This document shows, piece after piece, positions 13,564-55,000 of a stretch of DNA of 64,000 bases. Made by a program: the position numbers and the translations under genes. The stretch covers positions 5,283 to 69,282 of the forward strand of contig JAZNXN010000006.1 of assembly GCA_045593885.1 (NCBI GenBank), written 5' to 3'. How positions within the stretch are numbered: position 1 is the stretch's first letter; every line of letters starts with the position of its first letter. The notes under the pieces are model-generated. The model was not told the origin of the DNA. It was given only the letters and a program-made list of their open reading frames with translations, and searched no databases. Source of the stretch: Eubacteriales bacterium. Lineage in GTDB: Bacteria; Bacillota; Clostridia; Oscillospirales; CAG-272.

Positions 13564-13666
13564 GTTTCTGTCAAAAAGGCAAAGCATTAATGCGATGGGA
13601 ATTTGATGCAAAATGTGTCTTGTTGTGTTGCCACTGTATAGAATACTGCAAGGCATAACAAAACAC

Positions 13667-13703
13667 ATAAAAGCCGCTTGGAAAACCAAGCGGCCTTGTT
13701 TTG
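13667..13703 (-). terminator. terminator of the beta-helix lipoprotein gene
   Basis: GCCGCTTGG-aaaa-CCAAGCGGC with flanking A/T runs. Confidence 0.65.
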
Positions 13704-13720
13704 CACAAATTATCTAAGCA

Positions 13721-16639
13721 TTAATCGAGGTTGCAGCCGACTTTGGACAAATCCAGCATCTCAAACTCCGCAACCCACTCGTAGCCCTCCATATATGCAA
13801 GGTCTGCGAGGTAGTCGAGAATGTCGGAGCTGTATTCGCCGTCCTCAAACAGCTCAACGTCCATCATACCGTCATAGAAATTCTCTGCCTTTACGTGCAC
13901 TGCATCCCATACCGATTTATCGGTTGAGAAGTTGTTGTAGGTATTGATGGAGATGTTATTGCGATAAACACCGTGGTAGCCGTCACCCCAGTAGTAGTAA
14001 CGTCCCATCATCTCAAACCCATTCGTCCATGCGCCTGTGTCGTTGCCTGAGGAATCAGCCCACTTGCTGTACTCCCACTCAAACGTATCCTCGTTGTAGG
14101 TGTAGATAGGCATATAGAATTTATCAATGCTGATAGCAGAACCCATCGTATCAGTGTCAAAGTAGGATACCGAGCAGATGGCGGGATTAATCTGCTCAGA
14201 TGCCCTCAGCTGTCCGTATTCATAGAGGAAGTCTGCGAGCTCTGCTATGCTCTCCCAACCCGTGAACTTAGCACCTGCGGTGAGATTCTTGCCGTCGTAC
14301 TGACCGTCAAGAGTCTTATTGAGTGTTACGGTGATGTATTTTGCGTTATCATCGCGGATAACGTTTGAGCCGCCGTCGTTTCTGAGAAGATTGGAATTAA
14401 CGGCAATACCGTTTCCGTATATGTCGTAGAAGGACTTGTCGGAGTTGAGATAGATAAGCATATCGTACTGGAAGCGTCCGTCCTCAACGTCCTCGAAGAA
14501 ATCTGCCCAGGCATCGCCGATTCCCGATTCCTGAATGTGCGACCAGATAGCATCAGTCTTCACAGTGAAGGAGCTGTTGACGTCACGCCACCACCAGAAG
14601 TTACTCTCGCCCATATCGGTTGAGCTCATCATGACACGCTCGCCCGTGTTGAATATGAAATTGTCGTGAACGAGCGCCGCCTTCATCTTACCGAAGATAG
14701 TAGCCTTCGAATACTCACCGTCCCAGAGATTGTAGAGAAGGTTGTGGTGTATTGTGTAGCCCGAGCCGTAGCCGTCATCGTAGAAGATGTTAGAGCCCCA
14801 GTTAGGATAGTTGATACCGATATCGTGAATCTTGTTGTATCTTACAACGATACCGACCTGAGTTGCGTTATCCGAGAGCTGATAGAAAAGACCAACGTCG
14901 TCGGTTTCACGGATAAACTCGTAGATATCGTTATACTCGAATATCAGGTTTGCCGCTCCCTTCCATGAGAACGCGCCGTGCTTGCCGTGGTGGATCGAGT
15001 TCTGACGTATAGTAACACCGCTGAGACGTGATAAGTAGATTGCCCATGAATATGAATAGTGTCTGGACGCAATATCGTGAATATCGCAGTTCTGGATAAG
15101 GATATTTGCGTGCTCCATTTCCTCGGTGCCCTTAGGATTGCAGGTGTTGCGAATATCAATAGCACCCATACCGAGCTCGAATATATGGCAGGAGTCGATT
15201 GTGAGACTCGGCGTATTATCTGCACATATAGCCCTATCAGCGCAATGCGCGATGGTACATCCGATAAAGGAAACGTTAGAGGAATTCTTGATGCTGACGA
15301 GGTTGTTCTGACCGTACATAATGTCAACTCCAAGGAAGGTTACGTTGTTAGCACCGTCACCGACGATAACGTCATTTTGCGCGGTAGCAACGTAAAGATC
15401 TGAGGTATCGGGGTTCTGTCCGAGGTAGAGATAGAGCATCTGCGACGCGTGGTCGTAATAGTACTCACCCTCAAGGTCGATGGCCTCAAGAACATTCATT
15501 ATATAATAGGTGCGGTAGGTGGGGTTACCCGTATTGGTATCGTCTCCGCCGAGCTCACTGTTGTAGTTCCTACCCCTATCGGTCTTGAAATACGCATAGT
15601 AGGAGTTGTTTCCGCCGGGATTGAAGGGCTCGTCATAGGTTTCAAAGCCGACAATCTGATGGATAAGGTCGTCCCAGCTGTTACCGAAGAAGTTGAAGAG
15701 AAGTCCCTCCTGGTTGGCAAAGTCCCAATCGTGAATGGTTTCATAGGTTTCGTTGGTTACCCAGATGTTCATAGGCGCGGTCTTGTAGAAGCCGAGAGCA
15801 CCCATCTCACTGACGGTGTACCAATCGGTGACACCGTTTCTGTCAGTGTACTCATAGTTTATGTAGGTGGTAAAGAGCCAGCCTGCAAGGTCATAGCCGA
15901 ATTCCTCGGCATCCTTCGAATACTCGCCGTGGTTCGGGAAACGCGCGGGCTGAAGGTTGGAGTTTCCGTTATAGAACTGTACCGCATCATAGCTGGATAT
16001 CGTAGAGGAGCCAACCGTTGCTTTCGGCACGCCCGCATCGTTGAATATCGAGGTAAGTGTATCTGAGAAGTCGGACACGTCAATTGCAAGCAGGTAGGGA
16101 GCAATTTCGGGACTGACGAGGTCGAGCACCTTTTTGTTATCCTTACCTACCACGTGGCTTTCGTTTGCATAGGTGATATTCTGCTGACCTATTCTCATAC
16201 CGCCGAGGATTCTCGCCCTGCCGCCGCCTACGGTAGCATAGTAAACCTTGTTACTCTTGCTTCCGAGCGCGGGAAGGTTGAAGGAATCGGCCATATAGTA
16301 ATCGCCGTCATCCATAGCTATAATGACGTCATCCTCGCCGCCGCCGTTGACGTAGTCAAGAGCCGCCTGAGTTGCGTGCTCGAGAGTCGCAAACGCCTTA
16401 TCCGCGGCGGTTCCGTCGTTTGAATCAAGGCCGCTGTTCGAGGAAACGTAGATATAATGTACGTTCTCGGTGGGGAGCATAGTGCTGTAATCCTTGTAGC
16501 CGTCAAGGTTTGCTCCCACAGTTGTGGTTGTGCTGCCCTCGGTGGTGGTAGTCGCTGTCGGATCGTCAACATCACCGACACAAGCAACAAGCGACATAAG
16601 CATCACAAGGCATAAAACAATGCAAAGTAGTTTTTTCAT
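13721..16639 (-). CDS. large secreted lipoprotein with parallel beta-helix (pectate-lyase-fold) repeats
   Basis: Start moved to ATG 16639 (AGGAG RBS). Signal peptide MKKLLCIVLCLVMLMSLVAC with a lipobox. Repeated ...NVTFLGVDI.., NVSFIGCTIAH.., LTIDSCHIF.., ILIQNCDIHDI.., VTIRQNSIHH.. units typical of right-handed beta-helix proteins. Confidence 0.75.
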   Translation of the reverse strand: MKKLLCIVLCLVMLMSLVACVGDVDDPTATTTTEGSTTTTVGANLDGYKDYSTMLPTENVHYIYVSSNSGLDSNDGTAADKAFATLEHATQAALDYVNGGGEDDVIIAMDDGDYYMADSFNLPALGSKSNKVYYATVGGGRARILGGMRIGQQNITYANESHVVGKDNKKVLDLVSPEIAPYLLAIDVSDFSDTLTSIFNDAGVPKATVGSSTISSYDAVQFYNGNSNLQPARFPNHGEYSKDAEEFGYDLAGWLFTTYINYEYTDRNGVTDWYTVSEMGALGFYKTAPMNIWVTNETYETIHDWDFANQEGLLFNFFGNSWDDLIHQIVGFETYDEPFNPGGNNSYYAYFKTDRGRNYNSELGGDDTNTGNPTYRTYYIMNVLEAIDLEGEYYYDHASQMLYLYLGQNPDTSDLYVATAQNDVIVGDGANNVTFLGVDIMYGQNNLVSIKNSSNVSFIGCTIAHCADRAICADNTPSLTIDSCHIFELGMGAIDIRNTCNPKGTEEMEHANILIQNCDIHDIASRHYSYSWAIYLSRLSGVTIRQNSIHHGKHGAFSWKGAANLIFEYNDIYEFIRETDDVGLFYQLSDNATQVGIVVRYNKIHDIGINYPNWGSNIFYDDGYGSGYTIHHNLLYNLWDGEYSKATIFGKMKAALVHDNFIFNTGERVMMSSTDMGESNFWWWRDVNSSFTVKTDAIWSHIQESGIGDAWADFFEDVEDGRFQYDMLIYLNSDKSFYDIYGNGIAVNSNLLRNDGGSNVIRDDNAKYITVTLNKTLDGQYDGKNLTAGAKFTGWESIAELADFLYEYGQLRASEQINPAICSVSYFDTDTMGSAISIDKFYMPIYTYNEDTFEWEYSKWADSSGNDTGAWTNGFEMMGRYYYWGDGYHGVYRNNISINTYNNFSTDKSVWDAVHVKAENFYDGMMDVELFEDGEYSSDILDYLADLAYMEGYEWVAEFEMLDLSKVGCNLD

Positions 16640-23296: not shown

Positions 23297-23308
23297 TTAA
23301 TATATAAA

Positions 23309-23490
23309 AGGGGATGCTTCATTTCGGCATAACCGCAAGCAAAAAAGTGAGGGACAAAAAGTTCCTCACTTTTAATTTTACTAAAATCTATATCCCGTTG
23401 ACAACAAGGAAAAAATCTGCGTTTTTTGGTTTATTGCAGTTTTTTGTACTTCTGCCCGATGCCGTATAGAATACGGCGAGCTTGGTGGAA
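23309..23490 (-). repeat. MITE-like terminator-bearing intergenic repeat, copy A (inverted relative to copies B and C)
   Basis: The reverse complement of 23310-23440 aligns almost base for base with 29950-30078: ...ATAAACCAAAAA..TTGTCAACGGGATATAG.TTTTAGTAAAATTAAAAGTGAGGA.CTTTTTGTCCCTCACTTTTTTG.TTGCGGTTATGCCGAAATGAAGCA. Confidence 0.8.
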
Positions 23491-23520
23491 AAAGGAAAAG
23501 GATGTCAAAATACGCCGCTA

Positions 23521-24036: not shown

Positions 24037-24217
24037 ATAGTGTACCACCTTTGCTATTCTTTGCAAATACCTCGTATCTGCAATTTAATTATAGCATAGG
24101 TTTTTGTAAAAATAAACAGTTTTTGGAGAAATTTATTTAATTTTTTGTGAATTATAGACAAAAAGCGAGCAATTTGTATCTTTTTTTCGAAAAAATCGAC
24201 TTTATTTTCTTGCGGTG

Positions 24218-24246
24218 TTGACGGATGGGTTAATGTATGGTAAAAT
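24218..24246 (+). promoter_or_regulatory. promoter TTGACG-17-TAAAAT
   Basis: TTGACG 24218-24223, TAAAAT 24241-24246. Confidence 0.5.
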
Positions 24247-24270
24247 GGAATTTAGAGTGAGGTGGAGAAA

Positions 24271-24957
24271 ATGATTGATACACTGTTTTTAGACCTTGAC
24301 GATACCATTCTTGATTTTCACAAGGCTGAAGCGGTTGCGATAGCTAAGGCCATGCGCGCGCTCGATATCGAGCCGAGCGAGGAAAACATCACCCTTTACA
24401 GCAAGATCAACGATATGCAATGGAAGCGGTTTGAGCGCGGCGAGCTCACTCGTGAGGAGGTTTTGTCGGTACGCTTTGAGCTTTTGTTTAAGGAGCTGGG
24501 AATCGAGCGCTCGGTTGCAAGAGCGAGAGAGCTGTACGAGGGGCTGCTCGGTCAGGGGCATTTCTTTATGGACGGCGCAGAAGAGCTTTTGAAGGAGCTA
24601 TACGGCAAATACAGAGTATTTGTAGCCTCAAACGGAACGGCGAGAATACAGAAGGGGCGCATTGAGAGCTCGGGCATTTCCCGATACGTTGACGGAATAT
24701 TCATATCGAGCGAGCTTGGTGTAAATAAGCCGAGCCGTGATTTTTTTGATAAGTGCTTCTCGCTTGCGGGCGGAGTTGAGCGCGAGCGTGCCATTATGGT
24801 GGGCGATAGCCTCACCTCCGACATTCTCGGCGGAAAAAACGCTGGTATTCTGACCTGCCTATACAATCCGCGCGGCAAGGAAAATGCCACGGATATAATT
24901 CCCGATTACGAGATAAGCGCGCTCTCGGAGCTGCCGATTCTGCTTAAAAAAATATAA
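24271..24957 (+). CDS. HAD-superfamily hydrolase (YjjG-like nucleotidase subfamily IA)
   Basis: Motif I FLDLDDT, motif II ASNG, motif III/IV K...VGDSLTSD. Confidence 0.8.
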   Translation: MIDTLFLDLDDTILDFHKAEAVAIAKAMRALDIEPSEENITLYSKINDMQWKRFERGELTREEVLSVRFELLFKELGIERSVARARELYEGLLGQGHFFMDGAEELLKELYGKYRVFVASNGTARIQKGRIESSGISRYVDGIFISSELGVNKPSRDFFDKCFSLAGGVERERAIMVGDSLTSDILGGKNAGILTCLYNPRGKENATDIIPDYEISALSELPILLKKI

Positions 24958-24958
24958 A

Positions 24959-25100
24959 GGGGCTTAGTCATTAAGAATTCAGTAAAGCTCGGATTTTCTA
25001 CCTTATTGCCGTTAGGATACAGGCTTTTGTAAAATTAAAAGTGAGGAACCTTTTGTCCCTCACTTTTTTGTTTGCGGTTATGCCAAAATGAAGCAGTCCC
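24959..25100 (+). repeat. MITE-like repeat, copy B (short form)
   Basis: Shares the 5' end GGGGCTNAGTNATTAAGAATTCAG and the 3' 75 bp (AAAATTAAAAGTGAGG...GCGGTTATGCCAAAATGAAGCAG) with copy C, and lacks the internal part of copy C. Confidence 0.8.
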
Positions 25101-25107
25101 TTGTTGC

Positions 25108-25695
25108 TTACTGCTCAAATACCTTGAGTATTCTCGCCATTGATTCGTTGTATTCCGCATCTGACGAATTCTTGAAAATGAGGAAATCGTCGGGAACGGT
25201 AGGATCGTCAATGCCCTCGGGAATGCTGTAATCGCGGGTTGAGATGTATTCATCCCAATTCGCAAGCTTCCACGTGTCGCGGGGGGAATTGCGCGCTACC
25301 ATACGCTGACGGCATACCTCAAGAGTGGTTTCAACCCAGACAACAGTGAGACGGGCATTGTGCATCGCCAGCTTCCTTTTAAGCTCCCTTATATATTCGG
25401 GATTTCTCACCTCGCGGGTGAAGGGTGCGTTGATGAGCACGGTGTCCGCGTATTCGAGTGCCTCCATAGCCAGATTAACGATTACCTCATACTCGGGGTT
25501 TCTGATATACCTCTCAAAGAACTCGGAGCTGCGGTTACGCTCGTGGCCGCCCACGTCAAAGATAACGTGCGACAGGGGAATGAGCGTATCCTTGTCAAGA
25601 TAGACGATATTTTTAATGCTCTTCGCGAGCATCTTGGATATATATGTTTTTCCGCATGCGGGCGGTGAGGTTACAAGTATTAGTCTTTTTTTCAT
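25108..25695 (-). CDS. P-loop kinase-like ATP-binding protein (AAA_33/zeta-like fold)
   Basis: N-terminal Walker A SPPACGKTY; 195 aa; no other diagnostic motif recognised. Confidence 0.65.
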   Translation of the reverse strand: MKKRLILVTSPPACGKTYISKMLAKSIKNIVYLDKDTLIPLSHVIFDVGGHERNRSSEFFERYIRNPEYEVIVNLAMEALEYADTVLINAPFTREVRNPEYIRELKRKLAMHNARLTVVWVETTLEVCRQRMVARNSPRDTWKLANWDEYISTRDYSIPEGIDDPTVPDDFLIFKNSSDAEYNESMARILKVFEQ

Positions 25696-25929
25696 TTTAA
25701 TTTTTTTACCTTTATTTCCCTTGATAAAATTATAACAATGTGATTATACAACAAACAGAACAATAAGTCAAGTGCAAATCGACATTTTTTTGCATATTTT
25801 TAGGCATTTTTTTACTTTTTTCTCTTTTTATTCCCGGGAACTGATTTGTTAATTTTCATTTTGGTTGTTGATTTTATTTTTATTATGCTCTATAATTAAG
25901 ATACAAACAGATTTTTGAGAGGATTTTTG

Positions 25930-27774
25930 ATGGATATAAATTACAAAAGGGCGCTTGACCTTATCGAAGGTTATTTTATAAAAAAGGAAAGCCGTGTGGC
26001 GCAGATACCCTATGTGGCGCAAAAAACCGCTTCCTCGTACGGAAAAAACGCCGTGCGTGACCTTTCGCGCGCCCTGCCCGAGAGTGTCGGAATATCTTCC
26101 TCTCACATTGATGAATTTCTCTTGGCTCTTGAGCGCGAGCCGAGCGCGATTGTGCACAGTCTTCTCATCGTTTGCGACGGCAAGGTGATTTGCGATGCGA
26201 GCGCACCCGGATACGACACGAAGGAATGGCATCTCTGCCATTCAATGTCAAAATCGGTAACGGCATTTGCTATCGGTATGCTGATAGACGATAAGCGCCT
26301 CTCCCACGACACAACCCTTGCGGATATTTTCGGCAAGGCGGTTAGCAAGGAAATGCGCGCGGTTACCGTTAAAAATCTGCTTGAAATGAGCGTTCCTCAC
26401 ACCTTCGGCGAGCTTGGCTCTATCGTCAGCGAGAGCTGGACCGCAGATTATCTTTCGGGCTCATTGAAGGGGGCGGTTGGCGAGGCTCTTTCCTACAACA
26501 GCATGAATTCCTACATACTTTCGGTAATTGTAAAAGAGGTTAGCGGCGTTGACCTGTTTGAATTTTTGAAGGTGCGCCTTTTTGCTCCTCTGGGCATCAG
26601 AAACGTTTTCTGGGAAAAATCGCCCGAAAAAATCAGCAAGGGTGGTTGGGGGCTCTACATAAGCAATTACGATATGGCAAAGATAGGGCTTCTCTGCCTC
26701 AACGGCGGTATGTGGAACGGCACAAGGATAATCAGCGAGGAATTTATAAAGGGCGCTACCGCTATAAGTATGCAAAGCAATGATGACGGCGATTACGATT
26801 ACGGTCAGCACGTCTGGGTAAATAAGAATTCCCGATCCTACCTTTTTAACGGCATGCTCGGACAGAATCTATGGGTGTGTCCCGAAAGCAATATGCTCAT
26901 TTCTGTATTTTCGGGAAACGACGAGCTGTTCCAGAGAAGCGCCTTCCTCTCTCTTTTAGACAAGTTCTTCGACCCCTCACGCTTTTCACGCAGAAATCTG
27001 CGGAAAAGCAGACGCGCGTACAAGCGTCTTCTTGGGCACGAACGCGATTTTTTCGCAAGCAGAAGCTTCACCGAGCCGACAAAACGCGGATTTTTCTCAC
27101 GTATTTTCAGGAAGGCACCAAGTGCCGATGAGTTTTTCGGCAGACAATACGACATTGTAAAGAATAACGTGTCGTTGCTTCCCCTTTTCGTCCGGGTGAT
27201 GCAGAACAATTATACCGATTCGCTCACCTCGCTTATGGTTATGCCCGCAAGAAACGGACTCGAATTCACCTTCACCGAGGGTATGCTCGTGCATAAAATC
27301 AGGGCAGGCTTTGGCGAGTTTATCCGAGGCGAGCTTGATTTCAACGGCGAGCTCTACGCGGTAGCTGCACGGTGTGAGGTTACCAGGAGCGAGGACAGAG
27401 AAAAAATGATAAAGCTTGAGCTTATCTACCCCGAGCTTCCCAACGCCGTAAGAATCAGCCTCTATTATGATAATATGCAAAATATCCGCATAGGGCTTCG
27501 CGAAATACCAGGCAAGAATATGGCAGAGAGGCTGATGGGCTCACTGTCCGATATATTGCCGCGCTCGTTTGGACTGCTCGTTATGATGAAGCCGCAGTTT
27601 AACCCCGAGCTTTTGGGCTACAAAATAGCAAATGCGTTTTCACCCACGGTTTTCGGCACCATCCACGTTGACAGCGAGCACCTCCTGCAGCCGAAGGAAG
27701 ACACCGTTCTCACCGAGGAAGAAAAGCCCGCCGAGGCGGAAAAGCCCTCGGAAGAACCCGCGCTCATCAATTAA
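25930..27774 (+). CDS. serine hydrolase, beta-lactamase/PBP4*-like family, with about 280-aa C-terminal extension
   Basis: SxxK motif (SMSK) and YN motif (SYNSMN) in the first 330 aa. The tail ends in an acidic/Pro-rich EEEKPAEAEKPSEEP. Confidence 0.75.
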   Translation: MDINYKRALDLIEGYFIKKESRVAQIPYVAQKTASSYGKNAVRDLSRALPESVGISSSHIDEFLLALEREPSAIVHSLLIVCDGKVICDASAPGYDTKEWHLCHSMSKSVTAFAIGMLIDDKRLSHDTTLADIFGKAVSKEMRAVTVKNLLEMSVPHTFGELGSIVSESWTADYLSGSLKGAVGEALSYNSMNSYILSVIVKEVSGVDLFEFLKVRLFAPLGIRNVFWEKSPEKISKGGWGLYISNYDMAKIGLLCLNGGMWNGTRIISEEFIKGATAISMQSNDDGDYDYGQHVWVNKNSRSYLFNGMLGQNLWVCPESNMLISVFSGNDELFQRSAFLSLLDKFFDPSRFSRRNLRKSRRAYKRLLGHERDFFASRSFTEPTKRGFFSRIFRKAPSADEFFGRQYDIVKNNVSLLPLFVRVMQNNYTDSLTSLMVMPARNGLEFTFTEGMLVHKIRAGFGEFIRGELDFNGELYAVAARCEVTRSEDREKMIKLELIYPELPNAVRISLYYDNMQNIRIGLREIPGKNMAERLMGSLSDILPRSFGLLVMMKPQFNPELLGYKIANAFSPTVFGTIHVDSEHLLQPKEDTVLTEEEKPAEAEKPSEEPALIN

Positions 27775-27801
27775 AAAAAGCACCCTCTCGGGTGCTTTTT
27801 T
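27775..27801. terminator. intrinsic (bidirectional) terminator
   Basis: AAAAA-GCACCC-tctc-GGGTGC-TTTTTT. Confidence 0.8.
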
Positions 27802-27828
27802 GCTGGAGCTTCTTAACGTAAATCGAGC

Positions 27829-28036
27829 CGTTATATTTCATCACGGCAGAGCCGTGTATATCATCCGCAGCTTGTTGCGGTATATCATCAATTTTGCAGA
27901 AACTGTATATCGTCAAGTCGCAGATAATACACGCTAAAAGTGTGATGACATCCAGCCTAAAGGCTGATGATATACGCCTTCGGCGATGATATGCACGCTA
28001 ACGCGTGATGATATGCCATTGCTTTCGCAATGAATA
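27829..28036. repeat. array of constant 8-10-mers (ATATCATC on the left, GATGATAT on the right) alternating with variable mini-hairpins
   Basis: See finding. Motif copies at 27831, 27856, 27880, 27905 (one orientation) and 27944, 27966, 27985, 28007, 28030 (opposite orientation). Seven spacer hairpins with unrelated stem sequences. Confidence 0.7.
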
Positions 28037-28069
28037 AAAAAAACGACAGGTTTCGACCTGTCGTTTTTT
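28036..28069 (-). terminator. terminator downstream of the tRNA gene (bidirectional)
   Basis: A8-CGACAGGT-ttcg-ACCTGTCG-T6. Confidence 0.8.
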
Positions 28070-28146
28070 GGTGGACCGTCAGGGACTCGAACCCCGGACC
28101 GACCGGTTATGAGCCGGTTGCTCTAACCAACTGAGCTAACGGTCCA
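28070..28146 (-). tRNA. tRNA with CAU anticodon (elongator Met, or Ile2 if lysidine-modified), CCA encoded
   Basis: The reverse complement GGACCGT-TA-GCTC-AGTTGGTTA-GAGC-A-ACCGG-CTCATAA-CCGGT-CGGTC-CGGGG-TTCGAGT-CCCTG-ACGGTCC-A-CCA folds as a canonical 77-nt cloverleaf. A G1:C72 pair excludes the initiator. Confidence 0.9.
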
Positions 28147-28357
28147 TACGCTTTTTGGCGCAAGCAATATTATACCAAGCAAATGTGAACAAATCAGCAT
28201 TTATTTATGTATAAATTATTAACATTTATTATTAATGATAACTTTTTTATCTTTTTATTTGCGTTGGCTTTCATTGACTTGATTTTACACTGTTTTTATG
28301 ATATACTTTACCTGTTATTACCCGATTTGCGCGAGGGATGAAATACGAGGTGAGAAA

Positions 28358-29770
28358 ATGGGAGAGCGAATACTCGGCATATTCAGGCGCGGGATGATGT
28401 CTCCCGTTGGGATTTTGCTGTCGGCGATTCCGTCGGTGGTGGCAATTTATGCAAATTCGCTGAGTGCATCTATGTGGTGTATGTTTGCCGACATACTGAT
28501 AATTACGATATGTCTGTTTTTCCACGACGATATTGACGCGTGCCTTATGCCCTTTCTCTGCATTATGGCGACGGGCACGACTATGCTCGGCGTATTCACC
28601 GATTTCTTCTCGACGATAAAGCCGTTTTTCCCGTTTGGCGTTGTGGTATTTATCGCTATCGTAACGCACTTCGTTATATACAGAAAGCCCTTTTCTCACG
28701 GTAGGTATCTTCGCCCTCTCATCTTTTCGGGCGCGGCTATACTGCTCGGCGGACTTGGCTCGCTATCCTTCTCAAATTATTTTAACCTCACGTCACTTTA
28801 CTACCTTTCGGGGCTGTCGGCTTTACCTATACTTCTCTACCTTATCTACAAAAACAGATATGAGGGCGAGAGCAGGTACGGTGACAGAAGCGAGAGGTTT
28901 ATGCTGTATATGACCTCTCTTGGCGTTATTTGCGCGCTGACCGTGTTTAAGGTGATGGCGGATATTTCGTCAAAAATAAGCATCTACGTATCAAAGGAAA
29001 TGCTACTTATCTCCGATTTTCCGTTTCGAAACACTATCTGCACGATAATTATAATGTGCATACCTACGGCAATATGCCTTGCAGGTATGAAAAAATACCC
29101 CCTTGTTTTAAGGGGTGTGCTGCTTGCTCTCGGAAATATATTCTTTCTCTCACTCGTTATATCGACCTCGCGCACCGCTATGCTGTTCGGCGCGGCTGTA
29201 CTGGCAATTTCCCTTATATGCTATGCCGTGGGGGCAGAGGTTGGCGCAAGAGAGAGGGGGGTATTCCTTCTTTTGCTCGCAACTGCATTTTCAATTTTGC
29301 TGGCGAGGTACGGAAATGCTATGCTGCCCGAAATTTTCGAGCGCATACAGAACGGTTTGTTTGATAAGAGCGAGAGCAGATATCAGATGCTCCTGCGCTC
29401 CTTTGCCGATTTCCGTTCAAATCCCGTGTTCGGTGCGGGAATGGTTTCCGACAGAAATGCGGACGTATATGCCGCCGACGGATGTATCTCGTGGTACCAT
29501 ATGTATTTTCCGCAGATTTGGGGAGCTATGGGAGCCGTCGGTTGCCTTGGCTTTGGATATCTGCTTCTGTCGCGTTTGTCGCTTGCGTTTACGAGGTGGA
29601 ACGGAAAAACCATGGGGTTGTCGCTCTCATACCTTGCTCTCCTTTTATTCTCGCAGACGGACACGGGAGAGTTTAACCCGATACCGTTTGCTATGCTGTC
29701 GGTTATAATATTCGTTCTTATCGAAAACGAGGGAGCGGAAAGAGAGCTTCGCTTACCGAAAATAAAATAA
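28358..29770 (+). CDS. O-antigen ligase/polymerase (Wzy_C) family polytopic membrane protein
   Basis: More than 10 predicted TM helices, a periplasmic-type loop with SRTAMLFGAAV, and the H-x(10)-G-type motif WYHMYFPQIWGAMGAVG. ATG 28358 follows GAGGTGA. Confidence 0.65.
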   Translation: MGERILGIFRRGMMSPVGILLSAIPSVVAIYANSLSASMWCMFADILIITICLFFHDDIDACLMPFLCIMATGTTMLGVFTDFFSTIKPFFPFGVVVFIAIVTHFVIYRKPFSHGRYLRPLIFSGAAILLGGLGSLSFSNYFNLTSLYYLSGLSALPILLYLIYKNRYEGESRYGDRSERFMLYMTSLGVICALTVFKVMADISSKISIYVSKEMLLISDFPFRNTICTIIIMCIPTAICLAGMKKYPLVLRGVLLALGNIFFLSLVISTSRTAMLFGAAVLAISLICYAVGAEVGARERGVFLLLLATAFSILLARYGNAMLPEIFERIQNGLFDKSESRYQMLLRSFADFRSNPVFGAGMVSDRNADVYAADGCISWYHMYFPQIWGAMGAVGCLGFGYLLLSRLSLAFTRWNGKTMGLSLSYLALLLFSQTDTGEFNPIPFAMLSVIIFVLIENEGAERELRLPKIK

Positions 29771-30081
29771 GGGGCTGAGTAATTAAGAATTCAGCAATCC
29801 TACGTTTTTTTGCTTAATTCATCTGATTTTACTAAATTCTTAGTGCGAAGTGTCTTTCGGGGCTTGCTTGATTTTGAGCAGAAACCGCCGTTTTCGCGCT
29901 CGTCGCCGTACTCGGTACAAGAGAGAGTGAAAAGACGGTAGCAAACAAAAGGCTGTAATAAACCAAAAATCCCAGATTTTTCCTTATTGTCAACGGGATA
30001 TAGTTTTTAGTAAAATTAAAAGTGAGGAGCTTTTTGTCCCTCACTTTTTTGTTTGCGGTTATGCCGAAATGAAGCAGCCTC
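29771..30081 (+). repeat. MITE-like repeat, copy C (longest form, about 310 bp)
   Basis: Its ends are GGGGCTGAGTAATTAAG... and ...CGAAATGAAGCAGCCTC; these are imperfect terminal inverted repeats (11 of 17 positions by my alignment). It carries the hairpin AAAAGTGAGGAGC-ttttt-GTCCCTCACTTTTTT. Confidence 0.8.
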
Positions 30082-30084
30082 TTC

Positions 30085-31587
30085 TTATCCTCTTATTCTC
30101 AAAATAGCCGTGGGGATAGCGGCGACTGTGTCGGATGCAGTCATTGATATATCGCCAACCGATTTTTCCGCTATTTCGCCCGCGACACCGTTAAGGTATG
30201 CGCCTGCCGCAGTTGCGAGCAGAGGTGATACGCCGAGCGAGTCGGCGCGGGCGAGAAGCGCCGTCAATATGCCCGACAAAACGTCGCCGCTGCCTACGGT
30301 TGCCATTCCCGCGCAGCCCCTGTCGGTTATCATAACCGTTTCACCGTCGGTGATTACTGTGGATGCCCCCTTCAAAAGAAGGATAACACCGTACTTGCGT
30401 GCAAATTCCACTGCCGTTTCTATCGGAGCACTTTGTATTTCCTCTCGCGTTTTACCGCACAGGCGTGAAAGCTCGAGGGGGTGAGGGGTAAGCACTACCC
30501 TGCACGCAGCACCCTTCAGTATATTCACACCGTATTCGGCGAGGGAGTTGAGCGCGTCGGCGTCTAAAATCAAGGTTTTTTTATAACTTTTGAGGATGTA
30601 TTCAACCGTGTCGTATACCGCCCTCGATTTTCCTATACCCATTCCCATAGCAACGCAGGCGGCGCCCGATATTGCACCGTCAATATCCGTGGGGTTATAT
30701 AGTATATTTCCTCTGCCGTCGTCGGTCATAGGAAAATAGGTGCTCTCCAAAAGATAGGGTGTAAGCGAGGGTGCAATGCTCACAGGCGCAGCAAGTCGGG
30801 ACACACCTGCGCCCGAGCGCAAGGCAGACATTGAGAGGTTTGACAGCTTTATTGCGCCGCCGTAGCAGAGCGAGCCGCCGATAAGTGTTACGTAACCGAA
30901 GCTGCCCTTATGCGAAAAGCGGCTCCGTTTTTCAAAAAGCGGCTTTACATCGGTATCCTCTATAAGCAGATACGGTGGCTCCGTCGGGGCGATTCCTATA
31001 TCGCAGTTTGAAAGCGAGCGGATAAAATCCTTCGCCATTCCGAGAAAATGTCCGCTCTTGTACGAGCCGATTGAAACGGTGAGGTCGGATACCACCGCGC
31101 ACTCGGAAAGTCCGCTGTCGCTGTCAAGGCCGCTGTTTATATCCGCTGAAATTACATACGCGCCGGAAGCGTTTATCGCTGAAATTGCCTCCCTTGCAAT
31201 CCCGCTCGGCACACCGTGAAAGCCTGTGCCGAAAATGCAGTCGACTATAATATCAGACTTGGGAATATCCTTCTTTTTATCAAAAAAGGAATACGGAATA
31301 TTTTTTTGCTTGCACCTTTCAAAATAATATTTTCCGTCATTTGAAAATTTATCATAAAGAAGAATAATATTGGGAAGAATACCGCCGTCGGCAAGCAACA
31401 GCGCGAGCGCGTATCCGTCACCTGCGTTATTTCCCGAGCCGCACACGATTGATACTCTGCCGAAGTAACGCGCGCTTTCGTATATACCCCTCGCAGCGCG
31501 CAGCATCAGCTCCTTTCCCGATATGCCGCTATCTATTGTCGCTTCATCGCTTTTTCTCATCACAGATGAAGAAAGAACAGGCTTCAT
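30085..31587 (-). CDS. nnr: bifunctional NAD(P)H-hydrate repair enzyme (epimerase + ADP-dependent dehydratase)
   Basis: YjeF-N (GSGNNAGDGYALA) plus carbohydrate-kinase-like C-domain (GSGDVLSG). Start moved to ATG 31587 (MKPVLSS..., GGGGGTG RBS). Confidence 0.9.
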   Translation of the reverse strand: MKPVLSSSVMRKSDEATIDSGISGKELMLRAARGIYESARYFGRVSIVCGSGNNAGDGYALALLLADGGILPNIILLYDKFSNDGKYYFERCKQKNIPYSFFDKKKDIPKSDIIVDCIFGTGFHGVPSGIAREAISAINASGAYVISADINSGLDSDSGLSECAVVSDLTVSIGSYKSGHFLGMAKDFIRSLSNCDIGIAPTEPPYLLIEDTDVKPLFEKRSRFSHKGSFGYVTLIGGSLCYGGAIKLSNLSMSALRSGAGVSRLAAPVSIAPSLTPYLLESTYFPMTDDGRGNILYNPTDIDGAISGAACVAMGMGIGKSRAVYDTVEYILKSYKKTLILDADALNSLAEYGVNILKGAACRVVLTPHPLELSRLCGKTREEIQSAPIETAVEFARKYGVILLLKGASTVITDGETVMITDRGCAGMATVGSGDVLSGILTALLARADSLGVSPLLATAAGAYLNGVAGEIAEKSVGDISMTASDTVAAIPTAILRIRG

Positions 31588-31706: not shown

Positions 31707-31735
31707 TTGACATTCGACGCGGTGTATGCTATAAT
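31707..31735 (+). promoter_or_regulatory. perfect-consensus promoter TTGACA-17-TATAAT (with TGc extended -10) for the pfl leader
   Basis: TTGACA 31707-31712, TATAAT 31730-31735. Confidence 0.65.
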
Positions 31736-31740
31736 AAAGA

Positions 31741-31848
31741 CGTTATATGACTGACGGATTTTCGTGGGCTCAACCATACGGGAGTATAACGCTTTTTTGT
31801 AAATTACGCCGACCGTCTGGGCTGAAGCCTTAGACTGGTTGGCTTTTT
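31741..31848 (+). promoter_or_regulatory. ZTP riboswitch (pfl motif) with overlapping intrinsic terminator
   Basis: P1 CGUUAUA (31741-47) / UAUAACG (31785-91). J1/2 UGACUGACGGA. P2 GUGG...CCAU. ACGGGAG. Linker, then 3' subdomain CCGUCUGGGC (31813-22). Terminator GCCGACCGUCU...AGACUGGUUGGC-UUUUU (31808-31848). It lies directly upstream of pflB. Confidence 0.8.
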
Positions 31849-31897
31849 ATATTTGTTAAAAAATAAACTATCATATAAATTGAAACGGAGAAATGTT

Positions 31898-34126
31898 ATG
31901 AGAGAAGAATGGAAGGATTTCGTGCCCGGCTCGTGGCAAACCGAAATTAACGTAAGAAGCTTCATTCACCACAACTACACCCCCTACTATGGCGGTGATG
32001 AATTTCTCGAGGGTCCTACCAAGGACACGCTTGACCTATGGGAAAGGGTTAGTGAGCTGAAAAAGCAGGAAATAGATGCGGGCGGAGTGCTCGATATGGA
32101 TACAAGAGTAGTATCCACGATAACCTCGCACGGCCCCGGATATATAGATAAGGATAAGGAAAAAATTATAGGTCTTCAGACCGATATGCCCTTGAAGCGC
32201 TCGCTTCAGCCCTATGGCGGTATCCGAATGGCGATGAAGGCGTGCAAGGACAACGGCTATGCGGTTGACCCCGAGATAGTTGAGTTCTTCACCGAGCACA
32301 GAAAGACGCACAACGCAGGCGTTTTCGATGCGTACACACCCGAAATGAGAAAGTGCCGTTCCAACCACATAATTACCGGTCTGCCCGATGCGTACGGACG
32401 CGGAAGAATTATCGGCGATTACCGCCGTGTTGCCCTGTACGGTGTTGACAGGCTTATTGAGGATAAGCAGAGGCAGAAGGAGGCTACTCAGGGCTCTATG
32501 ACCGCGGATATAATCCGTGACCGAGAGGAGCTGTCCGAGCAGATTCGCGCCCTCGAAATGCTGAAAAAGCTGGCAGAAATCTACGGATGCGATATTTCAA
32601 GGCCCGCAACGACACTGAAGGAAGCAACTCAGGCGCTCTACTTTGCATACCTTGCGGCAGTTAAGGAGCAAAACGGCGCGGCAATGAGCCTTGGAAGAAC
32701 CTCAACGTTTCTTGATATTTACGCCGAGCGCGATCTGAAAAACGGCACAATAACCGAGAGTGAGGCTCAGGAAATCGTTGACCATTTTGTTATGAAGCTG
32801 CGTATGGTTTGCTTTGCAAGGACACCCGATTACAACGCAATATTTGCAGGCGACCCCACGTGGGTTACCGAGTCTATCGGCGGTCTTGGCACTGACGGAC
32901 GTCCTCTGGTTACGAAGATGTCGTTCCGTTACCTCAATACCCTTAACAATATCGGTGCGGCTCCGGAGCCTAACCTGACTGTTCTTTGGTCGGAGCATCT
33001 ACCTGAGGAATTTAAGAGATACTGCGCGAAGATTTCGATAAAGCATCATGCGCTCCAGTATGAAAACGACGACCTCATGCGTCCGATGCACGGTGACGAT
33101 TATGCTATCGCGTGCTGCGTATCCTCGATGAAGCTCGGCAAGGAAATGCAATTCTTCGGCGCACGTGCAAATCTGGCTAAATGTCTGCTCTACGCAATCA
33201 ACGGCGGTGTTGACGAAATCAGCGGTGAGCAGGTCGGCCCCGAATACCGCCCTGTTGAGGGAGATATTCTCGACTATGATGACGTAATGGCAAAATATAA
33301 GGATATGATGAAGTGGCTGGCTGAGGTCTACGTCAACACGCTCAACATTATCCACTATATGCACGATAAATATTCCTACGAAAGACTCCAGATGGCCCTG
33401 CACGACAAGCACGTAAGACGTTGGTTTGCTACGGGCATTGCAGGATTTTCGGTGGTTGCAGACTCGCTCTCCGCCATCAAGTATGCCAAGGTTAAGGCTA
33501 TAAGGAATGAAAAGGGCATCGTCACCGATTTCATCACCGAGGGCGATTTCCCGAAATACGGAAACGACGACGACAGAGTTGATAGCATCGCAAAAGAGGT
33601 GCTCTCTATGTTCATTCACTGCCTGCGTCAGAATCAGACCTACCGCAACGGCATAATCACAACCTCTATTCTCACGATAACCTCAAACGTTACCTACGGA
33701 AAGAATACAGGCTCTACCCCCGACGGCAGAAAGGCCGGCGAGGCGTTTGCGCCCGGTGCTAACCCCATGCACGGAAGGGACAGCAGCGGTGCGGTTGCAT
33801 CTCTTGCCTCGGTTGCGAAGATTCCGTTCATTGATTCGCAGGACGGTATATCCAACACGTTCACGATTATCCCCTCTGCGCTCGGAAAGACGGACGAGGA
33901 GAGAGAGGCAAACCTCGTTGCTCTGCTCGACGGCTACGGACGCAAGGGCGGCTTCCACCTCAACGTAAACGTATTTGACAGAGAGCTTCTGCTCGACGCG
34001 CAGAAGCACCCCGAGCTGTATCCTCAGCTCACGATTCGTGTATCGGGCTATGCGGTTAATTTCATCAAGCTGACAAAGCAACAGCAGGATGAGGTTATAT
34101 CGAGAACCTTCCACTCGGAAATATAA
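31898..34126 (+). CDS. pflB: formate C-acetyltransferase (pyruvate formate-lyase)
   Basis: 742 aa from ATG 31898. Catalytic CC (IACCVS) and C-terminal glycyl-radical motif RVSGYAV. Confidence 0.95.
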
Positions 34127-34848
34127 TGACAGGATATATTCACTCGATTGAGAGCTTCGGCACCGTTGACGGTCCGGGCGTGCGCTTCGTGGTGTTTTTT
34201 CAGGGGTGTCCTATGCGATGCCTCTACTGCCACAATCCCGACAGCTGGGCTTTGCGCGCGGGGAACAAGATGAGTGCCGAGGAGATTCTCGGTAAAATGC
34301 TTCGCAACATCGAGTTTTACAAAACGGGCGGAATCACCGCGACGGGCGGCGAGCCTATGCTCCAGCTCGATTTTCTCACTGAGCTCTTTGAGCTTGCCAA
34401 GGAAAAGGGGATTCACACCTGCCTTGACACCTCGGGCATAGTTTTTTCCGAGAGCATAAGGGATAGGGTTGACCGTTTGCTCGCAGTTACCGATTTGGTT
34501 ATGCTGGATATAAAGCATATTGATAAGGCGGTGCACGAGAGGCTGACGGGGCACTCAAACGAGGCCGTGCTGAAATTTGCACGTTACCTTCGTGACAAGG
34601 GCGTGAAGATGCGTGTGCGACAGGTGCTTTTGCCGGGATATACCGACACGGACGAGCAGCTTCTCTCGCTGGGCAGATTCCTTTCAGATTTTGACAATAT
34701 TGAGAAAATCGAGGTCTTGCCCTATCACACGCTCGGGCGCGCGAAATATGAAAATCTCGGCATCGAGTACCCTCTCGGCGATATGCCGCAAATGACGGAT
34801 AAGGATGCGAAAAGAGCGCTTTCTGTTATAGAGCGCGCAATTAAATAG
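34126..34848 (+). CDS. pflA: pyruvate formate-lyase activating enzyme (radical SAM)
   Basis: GCPMRCLYCHNPD CxxxCxxC cluster; TAATG overlap with pflB. Confidence 0.95.
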   Translation: MTGYIHSIESFGTVDGPGVRFVVFFQGCPMRCLYCHNPDSWALRAGNKMSAEEILGKMLRNIEFYKTGGITATGGEPMLQLDFLTELFELAKEKGIHTCLDTSGIVFSESIRDRVDRLLAVTDLVMLDIKHIDKAVHERLTGHSNEAVLKFARYLRDKGVKMRVRQVLLPGYTDTDEQLLSLGRFLSDFDNIEKIEVLPYHTLGRAKYENLGIEYPLGDMPQMTDKDAKRALSVIERAIK

Positions 34849-51980: not shown

Positions 51981-52013
51981 AGAAAGCAGGCACTACCCGT
52001 GCCTGCTTTTTTA
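51981..52013. terminator. intrinsic terminator
   Basis: AGCAGGCAC-taccc-GTGCCTGCT-TTTTT. Confidence 0.75.
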
Positions 52014-52028
52014 TGATAAACGGTGAGG

Positions 52029-52078
52029 CGTTTTCACGCCCCACCGTTTTCGTTTACGGTTATGCCAAAAGGCACCGT
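52029..52078 (+). repeat. diverged partial copy (D) of the 3' module of the MITE-like repeat
   Basis: Hairpin CGGTGAGGCG-tttt-CACGCCCCACCG, then TTTTCGTTTACGGTTATGCCAAAAG. Compare CCTCACTTTTTTGTTTGCGGTTATGCCAAAATG in copies A-C. It abuts the stop of a minus-strand gene, as copies B and C do. Confidence 0.5.
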
Positions 52079-52081
52079 TTC

Positions 52082-55000
52082 TTAATTATCCTCGGAGTAG
52101 AAGATGACCTTCGCTATCCAGTAGTGAGAGTCCATATACCACTCGTTCGGCTTATTCTGCTTGAGATATGCCGCTGCGTCGTAGATAGAGGTGCTCTCGC
52201 CAAGATTTGTGCTGATGCAATCTACGTAGTTGATAAAGCTCGTTTCCTCACCCTCAAATACGATGAATGCGCGGTACATATAATCCTGAGTGAACGCACT
52301 CTTATAGCTATTAACGCCTACGTCGTGCATTGAATTGTTCACTCCGTAGATGTCAAGGGTTGAATCTGCAACCTGTGCCTTCGTTTCCGCGCTGACCGCA
52401 AAGCTTGGGTTATGCATTACGACGGTTGCGTTTTCTGCCGTAGAGATATACTTGTTACCCGAAAGCATTACCGTAATATCCGAAATATCGTCGGTTGCAT
52501 TTGCGAATACGTACCCGATAGCGACAATGTCGTAGTGCTGGTCACCGAAGGTGTAGCCTGCGCTGATATTTGACGCATCGTGTGCAAAGAGTGCGCGGAT
52601 AGCCGCGTAATCGGTTACTCTGAGCTGATAGCCCTGGAACTTAACGAACTGCGTTGTGTCCATAGACTCCTTTGCCTTCGCCGCCTTCGCATATTTAACT
52701 ACCGAGTCTGCATTGTCTGCCAGCTGAGCCGCCTGCGATGCAAGAAGAACTGCCTTATCGGAATTCTCAACTGCCTTCGGCAGATTATCGTTTACTATGT
52801 TCATGTTGGCGAACAGCGTTGCTATGTCGCTCGTTGCCTGAGCTGCGGTATTTGCATCCTTCGCTGCGGACTCTGCCGCAACGACTGTTGCGTTGAGCTC
52901 GTCAACGCTGATCTTGCCGCTTGCAACCTTCGCTATCATATTATCAAGCTGAGCTATCGAATCGGTTATGATGTCGATTGCGCCCTGAAGTCCCTCAACC
53001 TCTGCTATAAGGCTGTTCAAATTATCCTTATTTGCGTCAAGGCTATCAATAACCGCCTGAAGATTTGAAACTGCAGCTGCGGATGCGTTCTTCGACTCAA
53101 GAATGGTGTTGTAGGATGCAAGCACCTGAGCCTTCGCCTCGTCGATGTTGGTTGCCGCGAGGGCCGCAACACGATCGTCAATAGCCTTCTGCATAACGCC
53201 TATCTGTGTTGTGTTTACAGCGCCGAGGCTGTAGCCTACAAAATTATTAAGGAAGGATTCGGTAAGAGCCGCCGCTCCGTAGGGCAGAAGCTCCGATACG
53301 TCAAGTCTGTAATGAAGCGCGAGGTCTGCAAAATGGTTCTGAAGCATCTGCTGGTCGGTGAGCGAGCAATCGTACAGACGCAGATAGTAGGTGTACTTGC
53401 CGCACTCGATTGTGTGAGCGGCAGAAGCGTTGCTGGGCTGGAAATCATAGGTCTTAACATCTCCGCCCGCAAAGAGAACCTTCGCGTTATTTGCCGTCGT
53501 TCCGTCCTCGTTCACAAGGATTCTCAAGGTGTTTTCAAACTGATTTTCGTTGTTTATGTAGAAGCTCTCGTGTACGTAATGAATGGTCGAGCCAGCGGGA
53601 AGATTCAAATGCTTCCATGCACCGAGGTTGTGATGGGTACCGGTGCCAAACTCCTCAATCTTGGTTCCGCCTGCGTGAACGCGGAAGGTACCGATTCCTG
53701 ATGAGCCGTTATAGCTGTACAGATGTATATTAAAGTCGGTTTTTGAGGTCTGATTGTATTTTTCCTGATACTCAGCGTGATAAACATGAGATATACGCTC
53801 AATAGAGTAGGTTCCGTAGGTATTGTCAACCTGAAGGTCGGTCTTGGGAAGATGGAAGGTTTCGTAGGTTACGTGCTGATTCAGAAATTCAATTTCAGCA
53901 GCGCTATTGCCCTTTTCAAGGTCATTTACGCCCTCGAATTTGTAATGAAGCGCTTCCTTATCGAACACAGCGCCGAAGAACACACCTACGTTCTTGTCGT
54001 CCTGCCATGTTTCGCTGTAGGTAACGAAGCCGTCGCTGTTAACGCCTATTGAGCCTGTTGAGGAGGTTCCGAGCACGTAGTACTTACCTGCGTTCTTACC
54101 GCCTATTATTTTAATGAAGTTGTGGTAGTCGCGCATACCCGTCGCAGGGCTTGCACCGTCAACAAGGAGAAGCGCGTTGTCAACCTCATCCTCAAAGGAT
54201 GCGGAATCCTGGCTGACGATATCTGCGTCCTCAATTCCGCTGAGAGCAACGAATGAGATAAGGTGACCGTCATCATAATAGAGTGATTTATATGCATTGT
54301 AAACGGTTTCAATATTATCTCTGGGAGGTGCCGCGTATCTGTTGTGAGTATCGTCGAGAATCTTCTGCATCTCTGCAATCTCGGCTGCATAATCCTCAGC
54401 GTCGTTTCCTACCTGATAGTTCACAAACTTTCCGTAGAAGCTCGCCATGCTGACCTTGCCCGAATCTGCCCAGAGGCTTATCGACTCGGGAATATCAAGA
54501 CCGTAGTAGTACGCGAGGTCCGCAAAGTGGTTCCGGTTTACCTCGAGTCCGGATATACCTCTTGAATATATACGGAAGCTGCTGTAATTGAATATGGTAG
54601 CATCAAGAAGCGGCATCGATTTGGTGTAGTTGCCTGATACAGGATTGATTGTTGTGCTTACCGTCGTGTTGTAATTGGTGCTCGTAGAGAGTTTGTCAAC
54701 AGCCGTGTATGTGTTGTTTATAGCGAACTGAGCCTCAAAGCTTGAGTCACTCGATGCAAGCGAGGTATGATTAATTGTATAGAAAATGTTAATTGGGGTC
54801 GCAACCGTAGCACTCATGTTGGTAACGGTAACGTACGTACCGAAGTTATGCTCCTGCTTGGTGCCCAAAATCATCTTGGTTACCGATTTGTCAAGCTTGA
54901 TAGAGCCGAGAACGTTGGTGCCGTACATACCGCGCATGAAATATGCCTTGTATTTCTGCTCAACGGTGCCGTTCTGCTCTGCGTCAGTAATTCCGGGAAG

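Follow-up and report, generated by a model that had tools for sequence, protein, structure and literature searches.

The question raised by this locus is why three spacers between convergent genes, all lying within 7 kb, carry near-identical sequence. They are part of a 64,000-nucleotide stretch of an Eubacteriales bacterium (contig JAZNXN010000006.1); the whole stretch is referred to as the window, and coordinates are window positions unless a contig is named. A first-pass annotation had proposed a terminator-carrying repeat family resembling MITEs (miniature inverted-repeat transposable elements), of which the longest copy is located between a Wzy-like gene and nnr. We consider the copies to be a lineage-restricted family of small mosaic interspersed repeats that bear a terminator, analogous to the SPRITE and BOX repeats, and put the probability of this reading at roughly 0.6. 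Strict MITE status is unproven; no target-site duplications were seen.

Direct reading of the window showed the sequence to match the earlier description. According to open reading frame (ORF) and Pfam calls, the three spacers are flanked by asd and hpf (copy A), a HAD hydrolase and an AAA_33 kinase gene (copy B), and genes for a Wzy_C protein and nnr (copy C). They have 110-145 nt in common at 83-91% identity, the similarity reported earlier being recovered by repeat search as well as by blastn. The repeat search of the window paired A with C (23308-23431 / 29960-30083; 124 nt, 89%) and A with B (23308-23415 / 24995-25102; 108 nt, 84%) in inverted orientation and B with C directly (24996-25105 / 29977-30086; 110 nt, 85%), conforming with the claim that the core is inverted in copy A. 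In blastn between the copies, identities of 91% over 145 nt (A/C), 83% over 119 nt (A/B) and 83% over 122 nt (B/C) were obtained. Also the further block of about 60 nt shared by A and C and the GGGGCTNAGTNATTAAGAATTCAG terminus shared by B and C were found as had been described, with the 5' terminus of B and C appearing as a direct repeat pair of 61 nt and 74% identity (24947-25007 / 29759-29819). The 16-mer TKCGGTTATGCCRAAA occurs four times in the window at ≤2 mismatches versus 0.18 expected occurrences.

A covariance model built on the repeat units (R1) was used to scan the whole window with filters off and returned exactly five units, A to E (Table 1). Copy D, located between the DUF4190 protein gene and a large ORF, had been suspected to be a diverged fourth copy, which was confirmed by R1; the neighbouring ORF, given as 1186 codons in the first-pass annotation, has 1196. 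Copy E had been missed.

Table 1. Units of the repeat family in the window and the parts of which they are made.
Feature	Coordinates	Strand	Evidence and sequence
Copy A, core	23308..23445	-	R1 97.7 bits, repeat search, blastn, pairwise alignment
Copy A, extension	23446..23504	-	Homologous to loop region of unit X in copy C (GCTCGCCGTATTC...)
Copy A, hairpin with A-run/T-run	23343..23373	.	AAAAGTGAGGGAC AAAAAG TTCCTCACTTTT; -18.2 kcal/mol on one strand, -15.9 on the other
Copy B, 145-bp basic form	24958..25102	+	R1 95.8 bits, repeat search, blastn, fold, alignment
Copy C, left piece	29771..29858	+	Intact left terminus GGGGCTGAGTAATTAAGAATTCAGC, directly 3' of TAA of the Wzy-like gene (29768-29770)
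Copy C, unit X	29859..29945	+	GGGGCTTGCTTGATTTTGAGCAGAAACCGCC and own hairpin; diverged inverted relative of M4
Copy C, B-like core	29946..30083	+	R1 98.5 bits; degenerate left end AAGGCTGTAATAAACC, hairpin 30018-30048, M4 30045-30083
Copy D, old diverged unit	52005..52087	+	R1 58.9 bits; hairpin ACGGTGAGGCG/CGCCCCACCGT 52020-52047, then TTTTCGTTTACGGTTATGCCAAAAGGCACCGTTTC
Copy E, degenerate unit	13631..13721	-	R1 33.3 bits; GGCATAACAAAACA and hairpin 13672-13697

Pairwise alignments, together with the compact copy on contig L001 of a sister species that is introduced below, defined a core element of about 120-145 bp. From left to right it comprises the left terminus (AAGGGGCTNAG..AAGAATTCAG), about 45 nt of variable sequence, an A-run, a hairpin of about 10 bp, a T-run and a conserved right module of 36-39 nt, termed M4 (TTTTTTGTTTGCGGTTATGCCRAAATGAAGCAGYCCCTT), which runs to the stop codon of the next gene. 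An imperfect terminal inverted repeat had been described, and inverted outermost ends (AAGGGGCTG / CAGCCCCTT) are present at both ends of B, C and L001, where they close the predicted fold, but they extend over 7-9 bp only. A longer imperfect inverted pair of about 30 nt, made up of unit X and M4, is confined to copy C. The occurrence of GGGGCT after stop codons is confined to these elements and does not reflect a genome-wide habit.

In copy B, about 45 nt separate the left terminus AGGGGCTTAGTCATTAAGAATTCAG from the hairpin (25037-25067), M4 (25064-25102) comes next, and the copy occupies the entire interval from the HAD hydrolase stop codon (24955-24957) to that of the kinase gene (25108-25110). 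Copy A, which begins 12 nt past the asd stop codon (23294-23296), reads on the plus strand as AAGGGGATGCTTCATTTCGGCATAACCGCAAGC, hairpin and ATAAACC block. Copy C is a composite of three pieces, namely a left piece, unit X and a B-like core, and B is therefore the basic form and not, as had been supposed, an internally deleted version of C. The left piece of copy C self-folds through pairing of UUAAGAAUU with AAUUCUUAG; the core stops 1 nt short of the nnr stop codon (30085-30087). Copy C, like B, fills its spacer from stop to stop. Part of unit X is also present in copy A, and a similar stretch is found at 13466-13533. Copy D adjoins the stop codon of the 1196-codon ORF (52082-52084), with the DUF4190 gene's own terminator alongside at about 51985-52010. 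Copy E is located in a rearranged spacer between an extra ABC ATPase gene and a beta-helix protein gene, in an orientation where the stop codon is faced by the hairpin and not by M4. In the surroundings of copy E (12259-13720), the extra, MalK-like ATPase gene (12259-13392, between the Tex and beta-helix genes) is missing from every sister-species contig, and the 328-nt spacer 3' of it is a patchwork of the unit-X-like stretch, copy E and two more hairpins. Including the sister-species loci, units were encountered singly (B, L001) or joined to other modules (A, C); some consist of hairpin and M4 with no left terminus (D, E, L002a), and the L002 array is made of M4 units in tandem that have no hairpin themselves.

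Ten units were aligned in the orientation of the abutting gene (alignment A2), revealing a conserved stretch, TTTYGGCATAACCGYAAACAAAA, that is followed by the hairpin. The hairpins of A, B, C, L002a, L004_1 and D are homologous and carry compensatory changes (GTGAGG..CCTCAC); those of L001, L003, L004_2 and E are unrelated in sequence. The hairpins fold on both strands, with values from -13.5 to -25.8 kcal/mol, between the A-run and T-run that the first-pass annotation had described. This arrangement is the classical build of a bidirectional intrinsic terminator, and terminator activity is predicted from it. Covariation was evident from double changes in 9 of 13 pairs, with 86% of cells paired; the observed scores were reached by none of 500 shuffles, and slid controls remained far below them. 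Both helices were supported. The small stem in M4 (YGG-CAUAA-CCG) comprises 3-4 bp at most, with two compensatory changes in a 3-bp stem. On the gene-sense strand, 16 G.U pairs were counted versus 3 A.C, an excess which hints that the structure matters on this strand, with the count being biased because the structure was predicted on that same strand. No Rfam family matched at gathering thresholds anywhere in the window, and in the region 23200-30200 only chance-level matches were obtained at E ≤ 5; those to L20_leader and sraA were far below threshold and not credible.

All five window units lie between convergent genes and end 1-12 nt from a stop codon, in line with the placement between convergent genes and against a stop codon that had been noted before. 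Convergent spacers make up about 10 of roughly 55 spacers in the window according to a crude ORF map, from which we calculated a hypergeometric probability of about 7e-5 for 5/5 units being found there. Several sister-species units are likewise located in convergent spacers; L001 and the L002 array are not.

The history of the three sites was read from their orthologues. An exact look-up of the window's asd protein gave no record. Homologues 96-97% identical to it are encoded on 12 contigs (L003-L014) that are fully syntenic with the window and include the metagenome-assembled genome (MAG) GCA_017504405.1, 'Clostridia bacterium RGIG5322', from sheep colon. These relatives belong to another species, the sister species, with coding DNA being 74-86% identical and MnmE 77% identical at the protein level. 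Copies A and B are missing from the orthologous sites in 12/12 syntenic contigs, and copy C is missing in 4/4 contigs that reach Wzy/nnr. The asd/hpf spacer measures 48 or 82 nt in the relatives and 224 nt in the window, the HAD/kinase spacer 49 nt versus 150 nt, and the Wzy/nnr spacer 15 nt (four contigs) versus 314 nt. The relatives' spacers carry unrelated terminators, such as AAAAAGGGACTCAATCGAGTCCCTCTTTTTT and AAACAGCCCC..GGGGCTGTTTTT. In one of the relatives (L004, 17336-17356), the native terminator hairpin overlaps both the Wzy and the nnr stop codons within the 15-nt spacer.

Homology between window and sister species breaks exactly at stop codons, at 23296, then at 23505, where it picks up again beside the hpf stop codon (23521-23523), and then at 24958. 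Relative to the sister species, the Wzy frame at copy C is shorter by 4 codons and the nnr frame by 2; it is the AA at the AAGGGGCTG end of the element that completes the stop codon of Wzy. Because homology ends at the stop codons and the frames are shortened, the change at A, B and C is a whole-spacer replacement since the species split and not a clean insertion. The search for empty sites in relatives, which the first-pass annotation had advised, thus found all three copies missing, but at sites that are not clean and belong to another species. In more distant relatives (asd 82-84% identical; L021-L023), no unit of the family was found.

The orthologue of copy D in the sister species, reached via MnmE (L024/L025), scored 20.5 bits with R1 versus 58.9 bits in the window; it has decayed to a small TGCC-loop-GGCA hairpin and an A-rich tract. 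Between the two species, M4 is 92-95% identical over 39 nt, above the level of coding DNA. Since the orthologous D is decayed and the A, B and C sites of the sister species are without a unit, we read this near-identity as recent spread, not as constraint.

Dispersal beyond the window is evident from the sister species. Among 185,579 species-representative genomes, an exact 23-mer of M4 was found in one, the sister MAG RGIG5322, on two other contigs. L001 carries a complete element of 118 bp between an NfeD gene and a tRNA-His/Arg operon, and L002 a tandem array of 2.5 units of 48 nt; more diverged sister-species units are located 3' of Tex, beta-helix and SPOUT/HTH genes, and units were present at at least six unrelated loci. 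In gut metagenomes containing L001, the summed contig depth of M4 was 631, 407 and 388 in runs X1, X2 and X3 (flank depth 13-17 in each), 154 in X4 (flank depth about 5) and 1120-1354 in X7 (flank depth 38.5). M4 was thereby found at 20-45 times single-copy depth with diverse flanks in at least four sister-species metagenomes. The contigs contributing to this depth have single-copy-like depth themselves, with unrelated sequence on both sides, and the repeat edges in L001 are sharp, at 7084 (first base past the stem) and 7119 (past CAGCCCC). Over window copy C, the gut runs gave about 15-45 times single copy for M4 in X1, X2 and X7 (in X10, a shallow run, about 8-14 times), about 4-20 times for unit X, which is repeated independently in sister-species metagenomes over 29835-29894, and about 2-4 times for the left terminus; the middle specific to A and C received no coverage in the runs mapped on copy C. 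A figure of tens of copies per genome in the sister species is an order-of-magnitude estimate, since the excess falls to 4-11 times single copy over the L002 copies at 88% likeness, and other community members could contribute to it.

Copies also vary between strains of the sister species. In the run X7 strain, 176 nt including the whole L001 copy are replaced by 67 other nucleotides, and the L002 array has one 48-nt tandem unit fewer (1.5 versus 2.5 units). The unit 3' of the beta-helix gene scored 73 bits in L004/L005 versus 23 bits in L008/L009, with the hairpin being kept. We conclude that in the sister species the family is present in multiple, dispersed copies, and that gain, loss and decay of copies take place between species and between strains. 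Both the dispersal, as opposed to a local segmental duplication, and the presence polymorphism that the first-pass annotation had anticipated were borne out, the former by copies at the unrelated loci on L001, L002, L003 and L004 as well as by the depth of M4.

Just upstream of L002a, at L002 4956-4999, an A/T-rich palindromic stretch (CGCTTTTTGAAAAAAGCTCAGCAAAAACTTTT) was observed in gut metagenomes at a depth of 80-500 times single copy. Back-joints point to other contigs on which it is repeated in tandem with spacers of 13-23 nt; the stretch could be a further repeat of very high abundance, or else reflect low-complexity cross-matching.

Hallmarks of mobility were sought at the copies and in sequence collections. 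Target-site duplications, expected by the first-pass annotation, were not seen at A, B, C or L001, where the flanks, read directly, contain no direct repeat common to the copies; the only candidate, at A (AAAAGGGGATG / AAAAGGATG; AAAAGG(GG)ATG), was discarded as not consistent with the sister-species site. Pfam and ORF calls agreed with the earlier statement that the window is free of transposase; neither a transposase nor a recombinase was found in the window or beside any copy, and there is no Y1 transposase (RAYT) among the window proteins. No longer element bounded by the family termini was found in any sequence examined. An autonomous element with matching ends, for which the first-pass annotation had advised a search, was absent from the window and the loci, from plasmids and phages (blastn with copy C) and from viral contigs (0 matches with three patterns covering M4 and the left terminus); the species-representative genomes, scanned with one exact 23-mer of M4 only, yielded two short copies in one genome. 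In JGI metagenomes, an exact 21-mer gave 0 matches. A looser 21-mer gave six, which we attribute to chance because all are within coding DNA and without a hairpin.

Several other identities were ruled out. Integron attC sites would have RYYYAAC/GTTRRRY ends, which are lacking, and the palindromic arms of a dif/Xer site are lacking as well. The element is too long, and its copies too few, for a DNA uptake sequence. Resemblance to tRNA or tmRNA is restricted to the GGGGCUG start, and a T-arm is missing. The mini-ORFs, one reading MPK* and the other, on the opposite strand, with an ATT start, are not conserved and have no ribosome-binding site, and IS200/IS605-type ends are excluded by the two hairpins being unlike.

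If the copies were classical MITEs, they would be deletion derivatives of an insertion sequence (IS) on whose terminal inverted repeats a cognate transposase acts in trans, with cut-and-paste movement and target-site duplications. Much of the build would suit this explanation, since the element is small and AT-rich, folds into a rod with paired ends (GGGGCUG/CAGCCCC; z = -4.8 for the L001 copy), combines conserved termini with a variable interior, is multi-copy and polymorphic, and in copy C even offers the 30-nt inverted pair of unit X and M4. We nevertheless consider it unlikely, as A, B, C and L001 are without flanking direct repeats, the two ends are unlike past 7-9 bp, and no IS with these ends was found in the window, the loci, the genome contigs (exact M4 23-mer), the plasmids and phages (copy C) or the viral contigs; moreover, the repeat unit in metagenomes is often M4 alone beside unrelated hairpins, which is not the behaviour of a cut-and-paste MITE. 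Of the earlier MITE-like label, the dispersed, multi-copy and polymorphic nature stands; duplications were not seen, and the inverted ends shared by the copies span 7-9 bp. The decay of orthologous units (D from 58.9 to 20.5 bits between species, the beta-helix unit from 73 to 23 bits between strains), together with the complete absence of a unit at the A, B and C sites of the sister species, bears on a different proposal, in which M4 with its YGG-CAUAA-CCG stem-loop would function in cis, at mRNA 3' ends or in DNA, as a site of binding or processing just upstream of the terminators of tens of genes, being selected and copied from terminator to terminator by recombination. Its position between stop codon and hairpin on the sense strand of the abutting gene, its constancy beside varying hairpin sequences, the G.U count of 16 versus 3 A.C, the two compensatory changes and the conservation across species above that of coding DNA would all agree with such a role. 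Copy E and the L002 tandem array, however, stand in the opposite relation to the nearest gene, the family is missing from the next relatives (L021-L023), and the wobble count is affected by the choice of strand for structure prediction; we regard a selected function of this kind as rather improbable. A speculative idea, to which we give little credence, is that M4 is a self-spreading 36-nt module which installs itself at the stem/U-tract junction of existing terminators, and/or a sense-strand 3'-UTR (untranslated region) signal read by a host factor. Installation at this junction would explain the sharp 5' edge at the stem foot and the unrelated partner hairpins; if true, either reading would make M4 a 'terminator parasite' that targets structure, or a regulatory code close to terminators of a kind not described in Clostridia.

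We hold each of two further explanations to be very improbable. The window copies could, without mobility, stem from local duplication or gene conversion among neighbouring terminators, as A, B and C have the same hairpin sequence and share a 7-kb stretch; yet the flanking genes are unrelated and not duplicated, the sister species has no unit at these sites that would serve as conversion template, and closely similar termini occur on contigs of the other species and on many metagenome contigs. That the copies are small RNA genes with an internal promoter and the hairpin as terminator is scarcely to be expected either: A and C contain a promoter-like TTGTCA-18-TAAAAT and B a weaker one, but the start predicted at the hairpin foot would leave a transcript of about 35 nt only, the promoter-like block is missing from L001 and the other units, and Rfam gave no match even at E ≤ 5.

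Our preferred reading, a lineage-restricted family of terminator-bearing mosaic repeats, has points against it as well. To the lack of target-site duplications, of a transposase or recombinase and of a longer element with the family termini are added that the inverted termini comprise only 7-9 bp, that the terminator activity is a predicted one, and that the sister MAG has only two M4 loci by exact match. Furthermore, the depth estimate sums community contigs at ≥85% likeness and shrinks at 88%, the 'empty' sites are whole-spacer replacements in a different species, where a clean insertion was not caught, and three copies within 7 kb could also come from local gene conversion.

Under the interspersed-repeat reading, three young copies (83-91% alike) would have landed in three neighbouring convergent spacers of the window lineage. 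Native terminators such as those of the sister species may then have been lost as redundant, with the element hairpin now presumably serving as bidirectional intrinsic terminator for both flanking genes. Convergent spacers would be the places where such insertions are tolerated, an argument that has been made for SPRITE, BOX, RUP and IS elements of pneumococcus (PMC3049150). Spread could have been brought about by a trans-acting enzyme or by recombination on the conserved termini, and the element may be neutral or selfish and have been co-opted as terminator, a proposal also made for the pneumococcal SPRITE.

Comparison with known systems supports the earlier analogy to BOX, RUP and Correia elements in the sense of 'works like', with SPRITE being the closest analogue instead; in modularity and tandem behaviour BOX comes nearest, and in the short-motif mosaic at gene ends BIME/REP. 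In pneumococcus, spacers between convergent genes are enriched in SPRITE, BOX and RUP, and SPRITE resembles a terminator while no duplications can be demonstrated for it (PMC3049150). Like SPRITE, the present element is a small interspersed repeat with a U-rich tract behind its stem, overrepresented at convergent 3' ends, restricted to few close species, without demonstrable target-site duplication or cognate transposase, presumed selfish and, by prediction, able to terminate. It differs in having a stem of about 10 bp versus 18 bp in SPRITE, in its most conserved part being the 36-39 nt module beside the hairpin and not the hairpin itself, and in a second conserved terminus and short inverted ends. 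Host lineages are unrelated, and the two are likened by build and placement, not by sequence; membership is not claimed.

BOX (boxA-boxB(n)-boxC, streptococci) is similarly a modular mosaic with a tandem module varying between strains, here the 48-nt unit of L002, and shares the pairing of its ends in the fold, clustering with and nesting into other repeats, and the intergenic location with a bias for convergent spacers. Unlike the present element, BOX has different module sequences and lengths and no central terminator-like hairpin with T-run, and the tandem unit here is the end module M4 itself and not an internal one. REP/BIME elements of enterobacteria and pseudomonads, mobilised by RAYT, are also mosaics of short motifs in both orientations at gene 3' ends, can stabilise or terminate transcripts and lack target-site duplications; M4, in contrast, does not form a GC-rich, imperfect palindrome headed by a GTAG-type motif, its stem has 3-4 bp at most, no RAYT gene was seen, and the copies are apparently tens and not hundreds. 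Correia elements of Neisseria and RUP of pneumococcus resemble the family in being small, non-coding, AT-rich, fold-back, multi-copy and strain-polymorphic sequences that alter the transcription of neighbours, an effect that is predicted for the present element. Correia elements have 26-bp inverted repeats and a TA duplication, and RUP resembles the IS630-Spn1 ends and likewise has a TA duplication, whereas the family described here has ends of 7-9 bp and no duplications. What is new is a family of a narrow lineage; the kind of element is already known from SPRITE and BOX, and it is not a new kind of system.

Further features were recorded in and around the window. A ZMP/ZTP riboswitch (RF01750, 49.7 bits) at 31707-31829 (+), directly behind a perfect TTGACA-17-TATAAT promoter with TG extension, lies upstream of 31853-34848 and precedes genes for a pyruvate formate-lyase-like glycyl radical enzyme and a radical-SAM activase. 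In the region 27943-28145, a tRNA-Met gene (CAT; 28072-28145, -) is accompanied by a strong terminator (28038-28069) and by a sub-threshold match to Gut-1 RNA (27943-28019, +; 30.9 bits versus a gathering score of 50), and this stretch of 165 nt shares 96% identity with the sister species, a level far higher than that of the genes around it. Where the window has tRNA-Met and Wzy genes, downstream of a beta-lactamase-like gene, an island encoding a large serine recombinase (Resolvase/Recombinase/Zn_ribbon_recom; L003 15587-17092; L008 15389-20411) is inserted in some strains of the sister species; in L008 the island also has HicA/HicB and DUF4236 genes. At 55844-59877 (-), the gene order is rnpA, yidD-like ORF, yidC, jag/khpB and mnmE, which places the window in the origin-proximal part of the chromosome. 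Large ORFs without Pfam match are located at 3798-5069, 35624-37270, 41038-42612 and 52082-55672 (-), the last of which, coding for the 1196-aa protein beside copy D, is conserved in the sister species (1178 aa in L024).

The findings mean that uncultured ruminant-gut Clostridia carry interspersed repeats of their own, and that such repeats can replace native terminators wholesale, which would rewire the 3' ends of housekeeping genes such as asd, hpf and nnr. Repeats of this sort break metagenome assemblies and are under-represented in MAGs; knowledge of the family would be relevant to predicting terminators and to annotation in this lineage, and its copies are markers for strain typing. With its conserved module and interchangeable hairpin, the family could lend itself to studying the way in which terminator-like repeats spread in the absence of classical transposon hallmarks, a question standing since SPRITE and REP were described.

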